A stretch of DNA of 64,000 nucleotides from Oscillospiraceae bacterium (GTDB taxonomy: Bacteria > Bacillota > Clostridia > UBA1381 > UMGS1253), in the NCBI GenBank assembly GCA_015068725.1, contig SVKA01000006.1, forward strand, positions 11,562-75,561, read 5' to 3'. Position 1 is the stretch's first letter; each line of letters starts with the position of its first letter. The position numbers and the translations under genes were made by a program. The notes under the pieces are model-generated. The model worked only from the letters and a program-made list of their open reading frames with translations. It was not told where the DNA came from and ran no database searches. Positions 1 through 47,154 of this stretch are shown in pieces.

Positions 1-208
1 TTGGGAAATATTTGCCGAACTCACCGCGGAGCGGCTGCCGTGAAATTCTTTGAGAGTAGGGGCAGACGGGAACTCCCGTAACAGAGTAAAGATGTGATGG
101 CATCTAAGGGCATCCTTTAAGGATGAAGAAGAGTGGTACCGCGGAAGCATAATAAGGATTTTACGCTTTCGTCTCTTTGAAATCAACGAAGAGACGAGGG
201 CGTTTTTT
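1..208 (+). promoter_or_regulatory. T-box leader (tRNA-sensing transcription attenuator), 5'-truncated by the window edge; probable Leu (CUC) specifier
   Basis: T-box core AAGAGTGGTACCGCGG at 129-144. Stem III-like hairpin CATCCT/AGGATG at 111-125. A 14-15 bp terminator helix (164-177 pairing with 189-202) is followed by TTTTTT at 203-208. GAA-CTC-A at 17-23 fits the specifier-loop pattern. Stem I runs off the window. Confidence 0.8.
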
Positions 209-252: not shown

Positions 253-1641
253 GTGAAAAAAATCAATGTATCAGACATTACGTTAAAAAAGCTGGCACAG
301 GACAGAGAGGTTTCGCTTTTGTTTCGCGAAAAGACGGCAATTGCCGCTTGTGCAGATGCGCTTGGCGTAGATGCTATTGAGCTTTCGGCAATTAAAAATT
401 TGCGCGAAGATACTATTGTTTATAAAACGATTGCAAAAAATATTCAAAAGAGCATTGTTGCAATTCCTGTTGGTTTTTCATCTGATGATGTAAAAAATGC
501 GTGGGAATGTGTGAAGGAAGCCGCAGCACCGAGATTGCAGGTAGAAGTACCGACATCCACAGTTCAGATGGAGTATATGTATCATCTTAAGGCGGATAAA
601 ATGATAGCAAAAATTGCCGAGCTTGTTACAGAGGCAAAAAAGCTTTGTAATGATGTAGAGTTTGTTGCAACAGACGCTACACGTGCTGATGAGGAGTTTT
701 TGATTGAGGCAGTAAAAACGGCTGAGCAAAATGGTGCCAAGATAATTACAATTTGTGATGATGCAGGTATAGCACTTCCGGAAGAAATTGCAGCGCTTGT
801 TTCTAAGGTAAAGCAGGCTGTAAATGCAGATGTTTATGTGCAGGTATCTGACGCTATCGGTATGGCGGTATCTGCAGCAGTGGCGGCAATCAGTGTAGGC
901 ATTGATGGTCTAAAGTGTGCAATGGCAGGCGAAAATTCGCTTTCTATGGGCGCTTTGTCAAAAGCTATTTCAGCGCGCGGCGATGCGATTGGCGTTTCGG
1001 TAGCGTTAGAAAACACAAAAATTCACGCAAGCATTGATGATATGCTTTCAAAAATTAACCATGAAGCCTACAAAAGCGCAGATGATATAAGTGAGAAAAA
1101 GAAGATTTTGCTCGATGAGGATTCGACGCTTTCTGACGTGGCTTATGCGGCAAAGGTGCTCGGATACGATTTGTCGGATGAAGATAACGGCAAGGTGCAT
1201 AAGGTGCTTATGCAGGTTTGTGAAAAAAAGGGAAGCGTTGGTGCAAAGGAATTTGAGGCTCTTATTGCAAGCAACGCAATGCAGGCACCGTCAACATATC
1301 ATTTTGAAAGTTATTCAACAAGTTGCGGCAATTTGACGACGGCAATGTCACAGGTAACTCTTAGATGCGGTGATGAAATTCTTTGCGGCGTAAGCATAGG
1401 TGATGGTCCGATTGATTCGGTATTTCGTGCGATTGAGCAAAGCATTGGCTATCATTATGAGCTTGATGATTTTCAAATTCAGTCGGTAACAGACGGCAAG
1501 GAAGCACTTGGTTCTGCTTTGGTAAAGCTTCGCGTAGGCGGCAAGCTTTATTCAGGAAACGGCAGCTCTACCGATATTGTAGCGGCAAGCATCAGGGCAT
1601 ATATAAATGCACTCAACAAGATTGTGTTTGAGGAGGCGTAA
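253..1641 (+). CDS. LeuA-like protein: 2-isopropylmalate synthase-family TIM barrel with degenerate catalytic motifs plus a C-terminal LeuA regulatory/dimerisation domain
   Basis: GTG start 9 nt after AAAGGGG. Collinear with IPMS (TSTVQMEY, FVATDATRAD, ICDDAGIALP). The C-terminus (GDGPIDSVFRAIE...STDIVAASIRAYINALNKI) resembles the LeuA_dimer domain. DITLKKLAQ replaces DTTLRDGEQ, and VQVSDAIGMAV replaces HxHNDxGxAV. Confidence 0.85.
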   Translation: MKKINVSDITLKKLAQDREVSLLFREKTAIAACADALGVDAIELSAIKNLREDTIVYKTIAKNIQKSIVAIPVGFSSDDVKNAWECVKEAAAPRLQVEVPTSTVQMEYMYHLKADKMIAKIAELVTEAKKLCNDVEFVATDATRADEEFLIEAVKTAEQNGAKIITICDDAGIALPEEIAALVSKVKQAVNADVYVQVSDAIGMAVSAAVAAISVGIDGLKCAMAGENSLSMGALSKAISARGDAIGVSVALENTKIHASIDDMLSKINHEAYKSADDISEKKKILLDEDSTLSDVAYAAKVLGYDLSDEDNGKVHKVLMQVCEKKGSVGAKEFEALIASNAMQAPSTYHFESYSTSCGNLTTAMSQVTLRCGDEILCGVSIGDGPIDSVFRAIEQSIGYHYELDDFQIQSVTDGKEALGSALVKLRVGGKLYSGNGSSTDIVAASIRAYINALNKIVFEEA

Positions 1642-1643
1642 GG

Positions 1644-4103
1644 ATGAAACTGACCTTTTCTACAAAAAACGTAAACAGAGCATCTTTTTTTGATACCTGT
1701 CGTTATGCGTATGATTACGGATATGCGGGTTTTGAGATTTATGATGCAATAAAAGAGAGAAAACAACACCACGATAGTATTCTTCGAAGTGAACGCACGG
1801 CAGATTCTAAAAGAAAGCTTTTTAATCGTGGACTTAATGTTTCTGCTTTGGTGTATCCGTATCCGATAGAGAGTAGTGATGCGACCGCGGATTCCGTTGT
1901 AAAATATGTAGATATGGCGGCAAATGCGGGAATTGAGCGCATTATTGTGCGCATCGAGGAAAAAACCTCGAATGAGGTGCTTTGTGAAAAGATTGGCGAG
2001 GCTGTTAAAAAGGCAGGGAATGCTGATATTCAGATATTGTTTGAAACATCGGGTTATCTTGCAAAAACAGAGAACGTAATTGATATTATAAACTTTTTCT
2101 CTTCTGCGGCGGTAGGTGTTTCGTGGAATACGCGCGAAACGTACTTTAGAGCAGGTGAGAGCGCAGATACTACAATCAAAACGCTTGGTGCGTATATAAA
2201 ATATGTACGTCTTGGTGATATGAAGGATGGCAAAAGTGTGCTGATAGGAGAGGGCGAGCTTCCCGTAACAAACGTTATTAATGCTCTTTCTTCGCTGAAT
2301 TTTGACGGATATATCTGTGTCGATTGGAACGAAGAAATACAAGACGCCGATATTGTACTTACACATTTTACAAATTATATTGGAGGACTTTCCCGAAAGA
2401 AAAAGGAGAAAGACGGTGCATACTATAACCGCGACAAATCCGGTACGTTTGTGTGGAAAAAATACGACGTTATCGACGCAACTTTTTCCGATGTGCTTGA
2501 TACAATGGTTGAAAAGTATCCTGACCAGTATGCGTTTAAATACACAACGCTTGATTACACAAGAACGTATTCGCAGTTTCGTCGCGATGTAGACGAATGT
2601 GCGGCAGCGCTTATATCGCTTGGTGTAAAGGCGGGCGACCACGTTGCTATATGGGCGACGAATGTGCCTGCATGGTTTATTACCTTCTGGGCAACGACAA
2701 AAATCGGTGCAGTACTTGTTACAGTCAATACAGCATATAAAATTCATGAGATTGAATATCTTTTAAAGCAGTCAGATACACATACGCTTGTGATGATTGA
2801 GGATTGCAAAGATATTAACTATAAAGAAATTATCGAAGAACTTTGTCCCGAGCTTAAAAATATAAATCCGGGAGAGCCACTTTATTCGAAAAATCTTCCG
2901 TTCCTGCGAAATGTTGTTACGGTTGGATTTTCAATGGATGGCTGTCTTACATGGGAGCAGATGCTTGAGCGCTCATCGCTCATACCTCAGGAGGAGGTGC
3001 GCCGCAGAGCATCGCTTGTAAAGCCTGACGATGTTTGTAATATGCAGTATACATCAGGTACGACGGGATTTCCGAAGGGCGTTATGCTTACGCACAGAAA
3101 CATTGTTAATAATGGTAAAACTATTGGCGACAGAATGGATTTATCAACGGCAGATCGCATGATGATTCAGGTACCGATGTTCCATTGTTTTGGTATGGTG
3201 CTATCCATGACATCGATGATGACGCATGGCGGTACGCTCTGTCCAATGCCGTATTTTTCGCCAAAGTCATCGCTTGCATGTGTAAATGATGAGCATATTA
3301 CATGCTTCAACGGCGTGCCGACAATGTTTATAGCAATGTTTAACCACGCAGATTTTGCAAAAACAGACTTTTCGTATATGCGTACGGGAATTATGGCGGG
3401 CGCAAACTGTCCTGCGGATTTGATGCGCCGTGCATCTGTCGAGATGAATATGCGTGAGATTATTTCCGTATACGGTCAGACCGAGGCTTCGCCCGGATGT
3501 ACGATGGGCGAGGTTAATGAGGACCTTGACCACAGAGTTGAAACTGTTGGAAGCGCTTTTCCGGGAGTTGAATGTAAGATTATTGACCCTGAAACAGGCG
3601 AGGAGCTGCCTGATGGTGAAAGCGGCGAATTTGTTGCGCGTGGCTTTAACATTATGAAGGGCTACTATAAAATGCCCGAGGCAACAGCACAGACGATTGA
3701 TGCAGACGGATGGCTTCATTCGGGGGATATTTGCTGCAGAACATCTGACGGATATTACAAGGTTACAGGACGTCTTAAAGATATGATTATCCGTGGCGGT
3801 GAAAATCTTTATCCGCGTGAAATTGAAGAGTTTTATCTTACACATCCGAAGGTGCGCGACGTTCAGGTTGTAGGTGTGCCCGATGAAAAGTACGGTGAAG
3901 AATGTTGTGCGTGGATTATTCTTCATAAAGGGGAAGAGTCGGACGAAAATGAGATGCGTGAGTATGGTAATGCCTCTATTGCCCGCCATAAAGTGCCAAA
4001 GTACTTTGTGTTTGTAAAAGAGTTCCCCATGAATGCAGCAGGTAAAATTCTAAAATATAAGATGCGTGATGAATCGGTAGAAATTTTAGGATTAAAAAAG
4101 TAA
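1644..4103 (+). CDS. Fusion protein: N-terminal xylose-isomerase-like TIM barrel (sugar phosphate isomerase/epimerase family) plus C-terminal AMP-forming acyl-CoA synthetase
   Basis: The ATG lies 2 nt after the upstream stop. Residues 1-250 resemble AP_endonuc_2/TIM. Residues ~260-819 carry adenylation motifs YTSGTTGFPKGV, VYGQTEAS, GDICCRTSDGYYKVTGRLKD and the C-terminal GKILK. Confidence 0.85.
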   Translation: MKLTFSTKNVNRASFFDTCRYAYDYGYAGFEIYDAIKERKQHHDSILRSERTADSKRKLFNRGLNVSALVYPYPIESSDATADSVVKYVDMAANAGIERIIVRIEEKTSNEVLCEKIGEAVKKAGNADIQILFETSGYLAKTENVIDIINFFSSAAVGVSWNTRETYFRAGESADTTIKTLGAYIKYVRLGDMKDGKSVLIGEGELPVTNVINALSSLNFDGYICVDWNEEIQDADIVLTHFTNYIGGLSRKKKEKDGAYYNRDKSGTFVWKKYDVIDATFSDVLDTMVEKYPDQYAFKYTTLDYTRTYSQFRRDVDECAAALISLGVKAGDHVAIWATNVPAWFITFWATTKIGAVLVTVNTAYKIHEIEYLLKQSDTHTLVMIEDCKDINYKEIIEELCPELKNINPGEPLYSKNLPFLRNVVTVGFSMDGCLTWEQMLERSSLIPQEEVRRRASLVKPDDVCNMQYTSGTTGFPKGVMLTHRNIVNNGKTIGDRMDLSTADRMMIQVPMFHCFGMVLSMTSMMTHGGTLCPMPYFSPKSSLACVNDEHITCFNGVPTMFIAMFNHADFAKTDFSYMRTGIMAGANCPADLMRRASVEMNMREIISVYGQTEASPGCTMGEVNEDLDHRVETVGSAFPGVECKIIDPETGEELPDGESGEFVARGFNIMKGYYKMPEATAQTIDADGWLHSGDICCRTSDGYYKVTGRLKDMIIRGGENLYPREIEEFYLTHPKVRDVQVVGVPDEKYGEECCAWIILHKGEESDENEMREYGNASIARHKVPKYFVFVKEFPMNAAGKILKYKMRDESVEILGLKK

Positions 4104-4109
4104 ATTAAG

Positions 4110-4141
4110 AAAAAAATGCACCCCGCAGGGTGCATTTTTTG
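4110..4141. terminator. Bidirectional rho-independent terminator between convergent genes
   Basis: A-run, then TGCACCC-cgca-GGGTGCA, then T-run. Confidence 0.8.
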
Positions 4142-4159
4142 CGTTTAAGTTATAGTGTT

Positions 4160-7100
4160 TTATTTCTTTTCTGTAAATACAATCTCAACAAGTGAGTTCC
4201 ACTTATTTACGCTGTTTCCATAACCCTTGTATTTTACATATCTTGCCTTTGCACCACCAAGGTCAAACGGCTCAAGCTCTCCCGTTTTAAATGTACCACT
4301 TGTTTCCATACCGGTAATCACCGGCGTATAGTTTACGCCATCCTCGGAAACTTCTATGTCGAATTTGTATTTTCTTACATTACCCTGCATAAACGTGAAC
4401 ATAACCTTGTCAAGCGTTTTTACTCTGCCAAAATCATATATACCCCATGCGTCGTGATTATCGCTTGACACACCCCAATATGTGCCATAATTGCCATCAA
4501 AGCTTGCTTCAATTTGTCTTGCAGGATTTGCCTCTGCTCCGCTTTGTTCAGCTTTTACAATCTTGATATAATTTTCTACTCCAAGCTCTTTTTGTCCGTC
4601 CATAGCAGGGATTATTGTTACCTTTTCTGCAAATTCATCCCACGAAACCTTTGCGCCAAGGTTTTCAGCAACAAAACGTACAGGAATTACAAATCTGCCG
4701 TCAATTATCATCGCCGGAACATCAAGTTCAACTGGTTCATCATTTACATAAACCGTATTCTGATTTTCTGTAATTACTATCCTTGTATCACCATTATCAG
4801 CCGTTGCTGTCAAGGTTGCCTCATCCCAAGTTACCTCAGCATCCATAGCCTCTAAAAGCGCACGCATAGGAATAAGCGTTCTGCCATCTCTTATTGTCGG
4901 TGGTACATCTGAATAGAGGAAGTTGTTGTTAAAGAAGATTGTTACGCCTTCAACCTCGGGTGCGCCACCGTCTGTAAACTTTTTGTCTGCATCTGCGCTT
5001 GCATAGGTAAGTGTATACTCACCTGCAGGAGCAGTAAAGTAGATTATACCACCATCTTCTGATGCAATCTGTGTGTCGATTTCGCTACCGTTTACAGATA
5101 TTTTCCACGTACCTGCCTCAAGACCTGCAACGTTAACCTTGAGCGCAGCTTCGCCACCCGGAACTGTGAATGTTACAGCATCCTTTGTGCGAGCCTTGTT
5201 TTTATTAAACATAACAACTCTGTCAAATATCTTTGCACCGGCAAAGCTGTCTGTTTCAATAAGTTCTGCCTTTTCAACAGGTGAATTATCATCAGCATTG
5301 CCAACGTACATTACATTTAACATATAGTCAACCTTGCCCGACTTCTTTGGCATAATTTCAACTCTGCCCCATCCTGCTTCAAGGCTACCACTAACATCTT
5401 CAACTCTGCCCGCATCGGAACCTGTTGCTTTGCCTGATTCTTCCAAAGTAAACCAGTTCTGGTCTTTGTTCCAGAAGCGCTTATCTTTTCCGCCGATTTT
5501 TTCAATCGCTAAATTTTCAGCAGCAGGAAGAAGTGTCTGATTTACAAGTTTGCCGTTATAGTCACGCTCTGTTCTTTTTATTGTAGTAACGTTACCGCTA
5601 ACCTCAGGCTCTTCTTGTGAGTGAAGAAGAAATGCCTTTTTCTTTCCGCCAACCTTTGTATCAACCTTGTCAAACACAACAAACGCAGCAGGATTTTTCT
5701 CGTTACCTGTCGGAAGGAAAATCATATGACGAAGAGCTTCGTTTACGCCATCATCACTGTCAGAAGTGTATGCGTTTGCAATATCACCTGCTATATATGA
5801 ATATTCCGGATACTGCAAATCAGGACCAAACTCGTGGCCAATAACGTCTGCCCAGTGATTTTCCTTATTTTCCTGATAACCCTTCCATGTACTATCAATC
5901 CAGTAGAAGTTCTTTCCGGATCTGCTATCTACACCAATTCCGCCTATACCCTGGTTCTGATTGCCCCATTTATTATAATCAGTTTCTATTACAAGTGTGT
6001 TATGTGCAACAGACTGCACGGTATAGTGTGCATGCTGATCTGAGCTATGTTTTTCATACCAGCCCGAGTCATTTGCCAAAATACCTTTATAGTAAATCAT
6101 AAAGTGTCCGCAGTCATAGTGCGCATGGTTCATACCATTGTACTCACCAATCATCATCGTCGCTACAACGTCGTTTGACTTTGTGCCCATATTCCAGCCT
6201 GTACGTGCAACCATCTCACCAACCGGTGAACCAAAATATTTTGTAAGCGGAAGTGTTTCGGCAGATGCCTTTGTCGCATCAACTGAAATATCATTGAGCA
6301 GAAGCATTTCCGTAGGAAGTACACCCTCTCGGCCAATTCTTGGTTTAAATCCGCCCTGATATAAAAATTCTTTTTTCAAAATTGGATCGCCCTGTAAAAC
6401 CGAGCCCATAAACATACCGTCTGTGCCCTTCATTGCGTATGTATTTTTCGGTATTCCGTTAAATCCTGCAGTATCATCGCCGTCAATCATCAAAAGACCA
6501 TCGGGGCGACGCTTATATATCCACTCATACATAAGGCTTGCAAGCTGGTCTTCATTGAACAGTTCATAACCACTCATACGTTTAACAAGCATATGTGCAT
6601 ATGCCAAAGATGTATAACGATTCATAAGTCCATAGCAGCTTCCCTGTGAATGTTGTCCCGACTGAGTCCACCAGTTTGTATATGCAACAGACTCATCAGA
6701 CAATATCTTGCCCATTACAAGGTTATATGCATCGGGATATTCGTCATAAGCGGCAATCGCCATTACAAGCCAGTCACGATAAAGCTGTGCTTCGGCGCCG
6801 TGACCGCAGATGATAGTCTGTTTGTCCGGTGGGAAGCCAACCTCCATATCGGATGATATCTGCTGTGCAAGAAGCATCAGTTCTGCTTTATCCTTCTCAC
6901 TAAGCAATGGATAACACCAGTCATATACCTGACCAATGGTTTTTAATGCATGTCCTTCATTACGAGTATTATCACCTATCGCCGAAAAATCAATAGATTC
7001 TGCATAAGTTTTCATTGCAGAAATTGCCTGTTTAGCGTTTTCTTCGTTTCCATACAGCGCATAATCAAGCGCTTTTGCCGAAATTATCTCAAGTCCTCTA

Positions 7101-7954
7101 GCATTATAATTCGAAGATGTATTTGCAAGCACGCCATTATATTCTGCATCTTTAAGCGAGTTAAACTCTTTAACAATTTCAGTCATTTCCGGACTTGCTA
7201 TATTTTCCATAATTTTAGGAATATCCTTTTTTGTAAAAAATACTCTCGGATGCTCCGGAGGTGGTGTTATTGTAGGAATAGGATAGCGGTCCTCGGGCAT
7301 TTTGGCCGGTTTGCCAACTTCTGCAGGATCAGGCAACTTACCCGTCCCTTCCGGTTGATAAGCAGTATGTTTAGTTATAATAATCTTATCCAGTATACAT
7401 CCGGGTTCACGGGCTTGTATACGTATTTTTTGTTTATCGCCGGCATTTTCAACCAATATTGAACCCATTCTGTCCCATCTGTAGTCCGTTTCATGTTCAG
7501 ATAACTGTCCTGCAAAGCCATCAGAAAGGTAGCCTGTGTTACCTGTTCTGTATTCAGTAGCACCATAATCAATAAAGATTGTGTCACTGCCACCGGTCAT
7601 TGCCAGAAAGCGAACCCACATATTATATTTGCCCGCCTGATCAAATTCTACCTCAAAGCCTACCATAGCAGGGGTATCCGGTGCAGGTGTCACCAAATTT
7701 GTGGGGATAAACTTTACGTGTTTTCTGCCCGACGCTTCTTTGGCATTTTCTATTTGTACATTCCCCGGGTCAATAACATGTTTTTCAAGCTCGACCGCAA
7801 CCGAGCCTGCCTCCGTAGTATACAGTGCATACTTCGTCGGATCGTCAGCATCTGCCGAACCGGCACTTGTCATAACCGGATACACGGCAAATATACTCAT
7901 AAGCATTGTAAGTATCAAAACAAGTGTAATCGGTTTTACTGTTTGTTTTTTCAC
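4160..7954 (-). CDS. Secreted multidomain polysaccharide lyase (heparinase II/III-like) with an N-terminal CBM-like domain, a copper-amine-oxidase-N-like 'stalk' domain and a C-terminal F5/8 type C (discoidin/CBM32-like) domain
   Basis: Signal peptide MKKQTVKPITLVLILTMLMSIFAVYPVMTSAGSADA. EHPRVFFTKKDIPKI and NHAHYDCGHFMIYYKG are heparinase II/III-type motifs. A stalk-like repeat DGRTLIPMRALLEAM...GRFVIPVRFVAENLGAKVSW is present. The discoidin-like C-terminus contains FDGNYGTYWG. Confidence 0.75.
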   Translation of the reverse strand: MKKQTVKPITLVLILTMLMSIFAVYPVMTSAGSADADDPTKYALYTTEAGSVAVELEKHVIDPGNVQIENAKEASGRKHVKFIPTNLVTPAPDTPAMVGFEVEFDQAGKYNMWVRFLAMTGGSDTIFIDYGATEYRTGNTGYLSDGFAGQLSEHETDYRWDRMGSILVENAGDKQKIRIQAREPGCILDKIIITKHTAYQPEGTGKLPDPAEVGKPAKMPEDRYPIPTITPPPEHPRVFFTKKDIPKIMENIASPEMTEIVKEFNSLKDAEYNGVLANTSSNYNARGLEIISAKALDYALYGNEENAKQAISAMKTYAESIDFSAIGDNTRNEGHALKTIGQVYDWCYPLLSEKDKAELMLLAQQISSDMEVGFPPDKQTIICGHGAEAQLYRDWLVMAIAAYDEYPDAYNLVMGKILSDESVAYTNWWTQSGQHSQGSCYGLMNRYTSLAYAHMLVKRMSGYELFNEDQLASLMYEWIYKRRPDGLLMIDGDDTAGFNGIPKNTYAMKGTDGMFMGSVLQGDPILKKEFLYQGGFKPRIGREGVLPTEMLLLNDISVDATKASAETLPLTKYFGSPVGEMVARTGWNMGTKSNDVVATMMIGEYNGMNHAHYDCGHFMIYYKGILANDSGWYEKHSSDQHAHYTVQSVAHNTLVIETDYNKWGNQNQGIGGIGVDSRSGKNFYWIDSTWKGYQENKENHWADVIGHEFGPDLQYPEYSYIAGDIANAYTSDSDDGVNEALRHMIFLPTGNEKNPAAFVVFDKVDTKVGGKKKAFLLHSQEEPEVSGNVTTIKRTERDYNGKLVNQTLLPAAENLAIEKIGGKDKRFWNKDQNWFTLEESGKATGSDAGRVEDVSGSLEAGWGRVEIMPKKSGKVDYMLNVMYVGNADDNSPVEKAELIETDSFAGAKIFDRVVMFNKNKARTKDAVTFTVPGGEAALKVNVAGLEAGTWKISVNGSEIDTQIASEDGGIIYFTAPAGEYTLTYASADADKKFTDGGAPEVEGVTIFFNNNFLYSDVPPTIRDGRTLIPMRALLEAMDAEVTWDEATLTATADNGDTRIVITENQNTVYVNDEPVELDVPAMIIDGRFVIPVRFVAENLGAKVSWDEFAEKVTIIPAMDGQKELGVENYIKIVKAEQSGAEANPARQIEASFDGNYGTYWGVSSDNHDAWGIYDFGRVKTLDKVMFTFMQGNVRKYKFDIEVSEDGVNYTPVITGMETSGTFKTGELEPFDLGGAKARYVKYKGYGNSVNKWNSLVEIVFTEKK

Positions 7955-10050: not shown

Positions 10051-10866
10051 TCAAAATTGTGAGCAAAGCTTGTCATAGCAGGCCTTGATTTGTGGTATTG
10101 TATAACCCTTTTTATCGGTTAGCTCAAAAAGCACGGGGCCTGTGTAGCCCGACTTTAAAAGAAGTGAAAAAATCATTTTCCAGTCATTTACACCCTCATA
10201 AGGCAACAAATGTCTTTCGTTAATGCGGTCATAGTCGCTTACGTGTATGGTGATGATTTTGTCGCCGAATGCCTTTATAAAATCTTCGTTTGTATCCGTA
10301 AGAAGATGGTTTGTATCAAAGCATACGCGAAGTCTGAAATCGGCTGAAACAATTTTTGCCGTATCTTCAATAGTGTTTGCAAGGCATGTGCGCGGCAGAC
10401 ATTCCACCGCAAGCTCAGCTCCGAGTCTTTCAGCTTCATCTGCAAGAATTCTTATCGATGCCTTTGCATTTTCTGTGTGAATAAATCTTTTGTCGGGCTC
10501 AATCGGCTCATACGAGGGGTGAATTACAAATATTTTTATATCTGTATTTTCGCGCACAAAACGCATCATATCAAGCTGACGCTCGATTGCCTTTTTACGA
10601 ACTTCCTTATCAAGCGAGGCAATATCGTATGGGTCCCAAAACGAAAGATGTGCCGACCAGAGCTTGATATCCGCTTTTTTACAAGAATCAATAAGCTTTA
10701 ACCAATGACTTTGAATTACCTCATTTTCCATTCCGGGACATACTCCACCGATTGAAAGCTCTAACATATCAATTCCATTATCCTTGCACTCTTTTAGCAC
10801 TTCATAATCAGCCGAGGGCAAAAATGAGCTTGAAATTGCAAGTGGATTATTTGAAAGTTTTATCAT
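10051..10866 (-). CDS. Sugar phosphate isomerase/epimerase (xylose-isomerase-like TIM barrel)
   Basis: 271 aa with AP_endonuc_2-type pattern (VECLPR, FDTNHL, IHVSD, LFEL). Starts 40 nt after the polC stop on the same strand. Confidence 0.7.
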   Translation of the reverse strand: MIKLSNNPLAISSSFLPSADYEVLKECKDNGIDMLELSIGGVCPGMENEVIQSHWLKLIDSCKKADIKLWSAHLSFWDPYDIASLDKEVRKKAIERQLDMMRFVRENTDIKIFVIHPSYEPIEPDKRFIHTENAKASIRILADEAERLGAELAVECLPRTCLANTIEDTAKIVSADFRLRVCFDTNHLLTDTNEDFIKAFGDKIITIHVSDYDRINERHLLPYEGVNDWKMIFSLLLKSGYTGPVLFELTDKKGYTIPQIKACYDKLCSQF

Positions 10867-46718: not shown

Positions 46719-46794
46719 TGGTGAGCCATCCGCGATTCGAACGCGGGACACCTTGATTAAAAGTCAAGTGCTCTGCCGACTGAGCTAATGGCCC
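46719..46794 (-). tRNA. tRNA-Lys(UUU)
   Basis: Cloverleaf folded by hand: acceptor GGGCCAT/ATGGCTC, anticodon loop CTTTTAA, T-loop TTCGAAT, encoded CCA. Confidence 0.9.
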
Positions 46795-46799
46795 GTATG

Positions 46800-46876
46800 T
46801 GGTTGGGATGGCAGGACTCGAACCTACGAAATGCCAGAGTCAAAGTCTGGTGCCTTACCGACTTGGCTACATCCCA
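46800..46876 (-). tRNA. tRNA-Gln(UUG)
   Basis: Acceptor TGGGATG/CATCCCA, anticodon loop CTTTGAC, T-loop TTCGAGT, encoded CCA. The 5' end may be off by 2 nt. Confidence 0.85.
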
Positions 46877-46904
46877 GCATCACCAAAATAAATATATAAT
46901 AAAG

Positions 46905-46982
46905 TGGGGTGGATAGTGAGAGTCGAACTCACGACCTCCAGAGCCACAATCTGGCGCTCTAACCAACTGAGCTATACCCACC
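46905..46982 (-). tRNA. tRNA-His(GUG)
   Basis: Extra G-1, anticodon loop TTGTGGC, T-loop TTCGACT, encoded CCA. Confidence 0.9.
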
Positions 46983-46998
46983 ATATTTTGTAAAAAAA

Positions 46999-47075
<77 letters not shown>

Positions 47076-47079
47076 ATTT

Positions 47080-47154
47080 TGGAGCGGGTGATGGGAATCG
47101 AACCCACACAATCAGCTTGGAAGGCTGAGATTCTAGCCATTGAACTACACCCGC
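47080..47154 (-). tRNA. tRNA-Gly(UCC)
   Basis: Acceptor GCGGGTG, anticodon loop CTTCCAA, T-loop TTCGATT, encoded CCA. Confidence 0.9.

Follow-up and report, generated by a model that had tools for sequence, protein, structure and literature searches.

What becomes of a biosynthetic enzyme that has lost its catalytic residues but kept its feedback domain, and why should it be encoded in front of an acyl-CoA ligase? This question is raised by a gene in a 64,000-nucleotide stretch of an Oscillospiraceae genome (contig SVKA01000006.1, positions 11,562 to 75,561; hereafter the window, whose own numbering is used below unless a survey locus is named). The gene (253..1641, + strand; GTG start, 462 residues) encodes a homologue of the 2-isopropylmalate synthase (IPMS) LeuA, in which a degenerate DRE-TIM (HMGL-like) barrel (residues 1-226; 253..930, +) is connected by a linker (residues 227-330; 931..1242, +) to an intact LeuA allosteric and dimerisation domain, the R domain (residues 331-462; 1243..1638, +). 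A leucine T-box precedes the gene, and a gene for a fusion of a TIM barrel with an AMP-forming acyl-CoA ligase follows it. Our overall reading, to which we assign a probability of roughly 50%, is that this dead LeuA senses leucine and serves an isovalerate-CoA ligase as its regulatory or scaffold partner, in a route that obtains leucine by carboxylation of isovalerate.

An initial annotation of this DNA had described the product as collinear with the LeuA family, with four of the canonical motifs replaced, and this description was borne out. The assignment of the barrel is supported by PF00682, an AlphaFold2 (AF2) model, Foldseek and the motif columns. The Pfam profile PF00682 (HMGL-like) matches residues 4-226 (E = 5e-32; profile positions 2-222) and is nearly free of indels, the AF2 model of the barrel has predicted local distance difference test (pLDDT) values mostly above 90, and this model superposes on the solved barrels 3ewb and 3rmj with a root-mean-square deviation of 1.7-1.8 A over 261-266 columns (Foldseek). 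Three independent alignments, namely phmmer to the solved barrels 3ewb, 3rmj and 3eeg, MAFFT with the canonical LeuAs P0246, P0260, P0261 and P0265, and the Foldseek superposition, each place the four deviant strings on the canonical motifs. DTTLRDGEQ is represented by D8-I-T-L-K12-K13-L-A-Q16, with loss of the substrate arginine and the metal-binding aspartate; TSxxH has become T101-S-T-V-Q105, without the histidine of the SPIH motif; E-D-A-x-R has become T140-D-A-T-R144, without the catalytic glutamate; and Q197-V-S199-D takes the place of HxHxD, both metal-binding histidines of strand 7 being gone. The barrel retains D8, S102, D141, R144 and D169.

Two further losses, beyond the four of the initial annotation, were apparent from the MAFFT alignment with canonical LeuAs. 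The GERAGNA motif that follows strand 8 is substituted and carries a 4-residue deletion, and about 40 residues of subdomain I (vGxnaFaHeSGIHqdG...YE..P..vG), including a catalytic histidine, are deleted from the linker, in which subdomain II is retained. The gap in subdomain I recurs in the NCBIfam coordinates, where query residues 271-281 correspond to model positions 276-324. In LeuA, subdomain I caps the active site and provides the catalytic histidine to the active site of the partner subunit. Point substitutions are sufficient to inactivate a canonical enzyme: R80K, R80A and E218A each abolish the activity of the Mycobacterium tuberculosis IPMS (reviewed in PMC10464499), and the window protein has the equivalent of R80K plus every other catalytic loss. 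Since the Pfam and NCBIfam coordinates, the alignments with solved structures and the superposition all agree, the motifs are absent and not shifted; the Arg/Asp/His-x-His constellation, for whose possible displacement the initial annotation had proposed profile alignment and structural superposition as a test, is missing. The protein is devoid of the residues for metal binding, 2-oxo-acid binding and Claisen condensation, and we consider it with high confidence to be a catalytically dead paralogue of LeuA.

The label '2-isopropylmalate synthase', which some pipelines (e.g., JGI) attach to members of this family, implies instead a divergent but active IPMS, citramalate synthase or homocitrate synthase whose catalytic residues have moved. 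The overall LeuA domain architecture and its collinearity would be in keeping with such an enzyme, as would the Leu T-box, a form of control that is also typical of genuine leuA genes. An active synthase is nonetheless very improbable given the nearly indel-free Pfam match and the residue-by-residue agreement of three solved barrels with the superposition, the lack of any HxH or R-D near the expected strands in the approximately 105 family representatives described below, and the absence of subdomain I. Furthermore, the protein reaches less than half of all curated IPMS cut-offs (NCBIfam equivalogs NF002086, 254.6 against 532, and TIGR00973, 236.3 against 598.7), and it scores far lower on the citramalate and homocitrate synthase models than on those for IPMS, with only 67 bits on TIGR00977 against a cut-off of 450. 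An active synthase with shifted motifs is effectively excluded by the coordinates, the three solved-structure alignments and the superposition, and a LeuA homologue that fails six defining features should not be filed as an isopropylmalate synthase.

The same losses characterize a large family. More than 7000 clusters at 90% identity match the LeuA-like protein, and its 120 closest relatives (73-100% identity, mostly 461-463 residues), from metagenome-assembled genomes of Ruminococcaceae and Oscillospiraceae, are named 'hypothetical protein' at NCBI. In a HMMER search against 50%-identity representatives, about 105 full-length clusters of 453-497 residues and 31-51% identity ranked before the canonical LeuAs, which followed at 497-516 residues and about 31% identity. 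The R-D pair, HxH, GERAGNA and subdomain I are missing in all of these approximately 105 representatives. What stands in place of the catalytic residues varies from member to member (A, L or T at the position of the catalytic glutamate, with E in a minority), implying that no conserved replacement chemistry has been fixed. Relatives are encoded in at least 533 GTDB species genomes, most of which belong to Clostridia of the gut and rumen (Acutalibacteraceae, Oscillospiraceae, Christensenellaceae and Ruminococcus), and further matches are labelled Synerg­istaceae, Spirochaetales and Lachnospiraceae. For the analysis of genomic context, loci were searched with a 10-sequence alignment (A3), the best 80 of the 533 loci were inspected, and distant contexts were sampled singly.

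Loss of all catalytic motifs might also be expected of a decaying leuA duplicate carried along in an operon, but the rate of evolution of the gene does not resemble that of a relic. In a comparison with the orthologue in L088, a syntenic contig, to which it is 93% identical, the ratio of nonsynonymous to synonymous substitution rates (dN/dS) is 0.063 for the whole gene at a dS of 0.76, with values of 0.071 for the barrel, 0.071 for the linker and 0.026 for the R domain, indicating purifying selection throughout. Intact open reading frames of 453-497 residues persist in hundreds of species, down to 31% identity, and both the position of the gene and its tight spacing to the partner gene are conserved. 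A non-functional relic has next to no probability in light of these observations, and is refuted by the dN/dS values and the breadth of the family.

What selection has preserved best is the regulatory portion of the protein. The mean family-wide identity to the window sequence is 55% in the R domain, as compared with 36% in the barrel and 25% in the linker, and the domain matches PF08502 (LeuA_dimer) at residues 331-457 (E = 7.9e-29). None of the residues shared by canonical R domains has been lost, among them the G-D-G-P-I-D loop and the segments Y-S-G-x-G-x-S-T-D-I ... Y-x-N-A-L-N-K, in agreement with the intact C-terminal regulatory domain claimed by the initial annotation. A role for the protein as a leucine-sensing regulatory subunit would be consistent with this conservation, and we put it forward tentatively, at somewhat less than even odds. 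The LeuA_dimer domain of the family was also encountered joined to foreign N-termini (MFS, TGT, response-regulator receiver and 7TMR-HDED) in P0239, P0248, P0249, P0251 and P0259; these short joins are probably chimeric assemblies and were left unused.

The partner gene (1644..4103, + strand; 819 residues; Pfam AP_endonuc_2, AMP-binding and AMP-binding_C) begins 2 nucleotides past the stop codon of the LeuA-like gene, and the two are co-transcribed and probably translationally coupled. Its product combines a xylose-isomerase-like TIM barrel (residues 1-265, nucleotides 1644-2438, +; AF2 pLDDT 93) with an AMP-forming acyl-CoA ligase domain (residues ~271-819, +) in which the adenylation motifs TSGTTGFPKG, YGQTE, SGD, GRLKDMIIRGGENLYP and GKILK are all intact. 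A survey of co-occurrence with this fusion, suggested by the initial annotation, revealed a near-obligate partner: the fusion lies directly 3' of the LeuA-like gene in all 80 of the 80 GTDB loci that extend past that gene, and the arrangement recurs with more distant relatives (43%, 40%, 37% and 31% identity) as well as on a Synergistaceae-labelled contig. The exception is a 32%-identical family member (L086, 1287-2693) that has no ligase fusion downstream. The earlier description of the LeuA-like protein as a pseudoenzyme or a re-purposed sensor or scaffold fits this tight gene coupling, along with the purifying selection and the variable former catalytic positions, the sensor or scaffold role being the presumptive part of that description.

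The three modules of the gene pair evolve at very different rates. Across the 80 GTDB loci, identity ranges from 57 to 83% for the LeuA-like protein, from 54 to 81% for the TIM barrel of the fusion, and from 79 to 95% for the ligase domain (at least 85% except in L081, at 79%); the corresponding ranges in distant loci are 31-43%, 28-32% and 58-75%. Measured against L088, dN/dS falls from 0.063 in the LeuA-like gene to 0.040 in the fusion TIM barrel and 0.012 in the ligase domain. The ligase thus evolves far more slowly than either barrel, which is the pattern expected of one catalytic module accompanied by two accessory, non-catalytic barrels. The degree of conservation of the ligase domain is unusually high in itself, and the sole explanation we found for it is that this domain is the catalytic core.

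The second barrel of the pair may have followed a course similar to that of the first. Fold and homologue searches with the TIM domain of the fusion returned a generic likeness to sugar epimerases (TM score 0.7-0.78, 12-17% identity) and no stand-alone annotated relatives. The canonical E-D-H-H-E metal ligands are intact in the fusion of a distant locus (L084, 2119-2958), whereas the same positions in the clade of the window are occupied by E134, N162, R164, R189 and D227, with two invariant arginines at the former metal site. Judging from these substitutions, the TIM barrel of the fusion may also be non-catalytic in the window's clade.

The leader of the gene pair identifies the amino acid to which its expression responds. 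As the initial annotation had proposed, a Leu T-box lies ahead of the gene (1..179, + strand; RF00230, 58.8 bits, E = 1.9e-12, model positions 71-219), its 5' end falling beyond the start of the window. The specifier loop GAA-CUC-A (17-23, +) presents the leucine codon CUC at 20-22, the conserved T-box sequence AGAGUGGUACCGCGG occupies positions 130-144 (+) of the leader, and the attenuator of the T-box is a terminator hairpin (169..208, +; stem 169-177/189-197, T-run 203-208) whose 5' arm overlaps the 3' end of the RF00230 match. In L001 (128 bits), L046 (127.8 bits), L055 and the distant L089, the orthologue follows a complete T-box that passes the Rfam threshold and has a CUC specifier in the Rfam alignment; the leader of L088 is a further full-length equivalent. 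A nhmmer search detected the T-box in 79 of 88 leaders; the specifier column is covered in 77 of the 79 aligned leaders and reads CUC in nearly all of them, with CUG twice and CCC once (L014).

A different leader was found in five close orthologues (L003-L007), which have no T-box. It contains a conserved open reading frame of 34-36 codons with a run of isoleucine and leucine codons (e.g., ANILLLIAIIILAI; MNMSAFHAANILLLIAIIILAIIKQSKNSAVCRVLR and variants of it), the leader being located at 5780-5955 in L003 and having counterparts in L004-L007. A GC-rich hairpin and a T-run come after this reading frame in four of the five loci (L006 is unclear), and the arrangement is probably a leader-peptide attenuator in place of the T-box. 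Given a leucine-specific T-box, the LeuA-like protein and the fusion would be made when tRNA-Leu is uncharged, and either kind of leader ties the expression of the family to starvation for leucine, or for branched-chain amino acids.

To place the pair in a pathway, open reading frames from the flanks of 87 loci were clustered and the recurrent clusters were scanned against Pfam. A class-IV (branched-chain) aminotransferase is a neighbour in nine loci, and a 2-oxoacid:ferredoxin oxidoreductase is represented by its alpha subunit in nine, its beta subunit in nine and its gamma subunit in four; the oxidoreductase, the aminotransferase or both lie within 6 kb in 11 of the 87 loci, and both are present in eight. 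In L003-L007 the genes for the LeuA-like protein, the fusion, the aminotransferase, a 229-residue P-loop-like protein and the oxidoreductase alpha and beta subunits are contiguous in this order and on the same strand. An AMP-forming ligase, a reversible oxidoreductase and an aminotransferase together make up precisely the steps by which reductive carboxylation leads from a branched-chain acid to the corresponding amino acid, and the Leu T-box then points to isovalerate as the acid. Carboxylation of isovalerate to leucine, of phenylacetate to phenylalanine and of isobutyrate to valine has been established physiologically in rumen bacteria (Allison 1962-1971, cited in PMC7356843). We consider it likely, on the strength of genomic context, that the LeuA-like protein and the fusion belong to an isovalerate-to-leucine module. 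This pathway context was not part of the initial annotation, and it is what gives the finding its likely meaning.

Two other genes recur in these neighbourhoods. The 229-residue protein (L003, 10905-11594, and nine other loci) has a weak ParA/NUBPL P-loop match and precedes the oxidoreductase alpha gene in nine of its ten loci, no oxidoreductase gene being detected in the tenth (L066). A gene of the Amidohydro_2 family (PF04909, ~269 residues) lies directly 3' of the fusion in 23 loci (e.g., L049, 7875-8684); the window does not have it.

Under the proposed mechanism, the fusion ligase would convert isovalerate to isovaleryl-CoA, the 2-oxoacid:ferredoxin oxidoreductase would reductively carboxylate isovaleryl-CoA to 2-oxoisocaproate, and the branched-chain aminotransferase would turn 2-oxoisocaproate into leucine. 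The conserved R domain of the LeuA-like protein would bind this leucine, and the protein, in dimeric form, would contact the ligase fusion, maybe at the face of the barrel exposed by the loss of subdomain I; gene adjacency and the 2-nucleotide spacing are the basis on which such a complex is proposed. Once leucine was restored, the LeuA-like protein would shut off the ATP-consuming activation of isovalerate. This fast end-product feedback would add to the control exerted by the T-box, giving two layers of regulation, as for LeuA in the de novo pathway.

These loci also hold parallel modules for other amino acids. One of them, behind a Phe (UUC) T-box, pairs a PaaK-like ligase with an ACT-pair protein, and fusions of HTH_3, Cupin_2 and AMP-binding domains are encoded by 41 genes in 29 of the 87 loci, sometimes as two in tandem; most of these cupin-ligase fusions have a T-box of their own, which is specific for isoleucine (AUC) in both cases aligned. 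Examples of such ligase modules beside the Leu module are located at 3477-5550 and 9941-12562 in L046 and at 2940-5531 in L055. The Phe and Ile modules suggest that each ligase has its own small-molecule-binding accessory, that of the Leu ligase being an R domain on a dead barrel. A more speculative extension, which we rate as possible but somewhat less probable than the overall reading, is that the pair represents the missing leucine-feedback entry enzyme of the isovalerate route, which has been known physiologically since the 1960s. Its sensor would have been recruited, once catalysis was entirely lost, from LeuA, the committed enzyme of the alternative de novo pathway, and the pair would belong to a T-box-controlled salvage set in which leucine, isoleucine and phenylalanine each have a ligase of their own, equipped with a ligand-binding accessory domain. 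Our literature searches found no genetic description of the ligase (entry) step of the isovalerate route, and no published account of a dead LeuA paralogue, of this gene pair or of T-box-controlled acid-CoA ligases. The novelty is limited in one respect, as pseudoenzyme regulators are already known as a class.

The pair might supply leucine by way of a different reaction, with another precursor or a leucine derivative as the ligase substrate, or the sensed ligand might be 2-oxoisocaproate or isovaleryl-CoA. The sequence of the ligase does not reveal its specificity; the best NCBIfam match of the fusion is to a generic 'fatty acid CoA ligase family' model, PRK12583, at 675 bits, below the cut-off of 832 bits, and the leader reading frame of L003-L007, rich in both isoleucine and leucine codons, hints at a broader branched-chain response. 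These alternatives appear unlikely when set against the Leu specifier CUC, which is conserved from close to distant members, the separate Ile and Phe ligase modules in the same loci, which suggest one ligase per amino acid, and the adjacent oxidoreductase and branched-chain aminotransferase, which fit the isovalerate route.

Several observations weigh against the reading of the LeuA-like protein as a leucine-sensing partner of an isovalerate-CoA ligase. In the R domain, and hence around the putative leucine pocket, AF2 modelling is of low confidence (pLDDT below 50), probably because the alignment is shallow and the fold depends on dimerisation, and a sequence search of solved structures with this domain gave zero matches. 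The oxidoreductase and aminotransferase genes have a limited spread, being confined to 11 of the 87 loci, and a scan of the window detected no oxidoreductase, aminotransferase, Amidohydro_2 or canonical leuA gene. F24, E107, Y108 and K113, which are near-invariant and specific to the family, map to the former active-site face of the barrel (regions beta1-alpha1 and beta4-alpha4) and could mark a new ligand site, not an interface. The intact metal site in the fusion TIM barrel of some distant lineages, in turn, leaves room for real chemistry in the module.

The last two observations would also be consistent with a LeuA-like barrel that is still an enzyme or a substrate-binding module, engaged in metal-independent or trans-completed chemistry; it might, for example, build an active site jointly with the fusion's TIM barrel, or bind an intermediate (acyl-CoA or 2-oxo acid) that it then channels to the oxidoreductase. 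Such a barrel would be expected to remain constrained and to fold confidently, as this one does (dN/dS 0.071), and the five retained residues of the barrel (D8, S102, D141, R144 and D169), the four near-invariant positions, the full E-D-H-H-E set of lineages such as L084 and the Amidohydro_2 gene that follows the pair in 23 loci could each have a place in this chemistry. However, the former catalytic positions are variable with no conserved alternative, the subdomain that supplied the active-site cap and the catalytic histidine is deleted, the fusion TIM barrel of the window's clade has lost its metal ligands too (N162, R164, R189 and D227), and sequence change in the barrel and linker outpaces that in the R domain and, by a wide margin, that in the ligase. 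Retained chemistry is therefore an improbable explanation, and we continue to favor a regulatory or scaffold role for the LeuA-like protein.

Among known systems, the protein has in common with the short form of LeuA (TIGR00973/PRK00915) the order of DRE-TIM barrel, subdomain II and C-terminal allosteric and dimerisation domain; the barrels are about 30% identical and the R domains 35%, and Leu T-box control is frequent for LeuA as well; it differs in being some 40-50 residues shorter and in its pairing with an acyl-CoA ligase fusion instead of leuBCD. Citramalate (CimA) and homocitrate synthases with regulatory domains (Leptospira LiCMS; TIGR00977) likewise combine an HMGL-like barrel with a LeuA_dimer-type domain, but are active and possess the full R-D, HxH and Glu set. 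A functional analogy is offered by HisZ, a catalytically inactive paralogue of histidyl-tRNA synthetase (HisRS) that regulates HisG, the short-form ATP phosphoribosyltransferase. The HisG_S/HisZ system is described as hetero-octameric (PMC10795190). In both cases a dead paralogue of an amino-acid-recognising enzyme would be kept as the allosteric partner of another catalytic protein in the same supply route, although there is no kinship of sequence or fold between the two, and the complex and effector binding are presumed for the LeuA-like protein. ACT-domain partners, such as the ACT-pair protein beside the PaaK-like ligase or IlvN/IlvH of acetohydroxyacid synthase (AHAS), also provide a separate amino-acid-binding protein; in the LeuA-like protein, the putative sensing domain is not of the ACT type but an R domain borne by a degenerate TIM barrel.

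The surroundings of the pair in the window are housekeeping genes, for RNase J, PolC, IspG, Dxr, CdsA, UppS and Frr. A gene for a secreted-type protein of 1264 residues (4160-7954, - strand) separates the ligase gene from that for RNase J; the protein is one with heparinase II/III, Cu_amine_oxidN1 and F5/8 type C domains. It is missing from the otherwise syntenic L088 and for this reason looks like a lineage-specific insertion. A stand-alone xylose-isomerase-like TIM barrel of 271 residues (10051-10866, - strand; PF01261, E = 5.7e-30) is encoded between RNase J and PolC, and has the same place in L088. Five clustered tRNA genes occur at 46722-47154 (- strand).

If the proposed role is correct, the gene pair would provide gene-level candidates, including a regulatory component, for the carboxylation of isovalerate to leucine, the route that explains why fibre-degrading Clostridia of the rumen and gut require branched-chain volatile fatty acids. 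It would also offer a bacterial case of an allosteric domain that has outlived the catalysis of its own enzyme and been re-used on a different one. For the organisms that carry this family, the label '2-isopropylmalate synthase' would falsely credit them with the opening reaction of the de novo leucine pathway when metabolism is reconstructed or auxotrophies are predicted.

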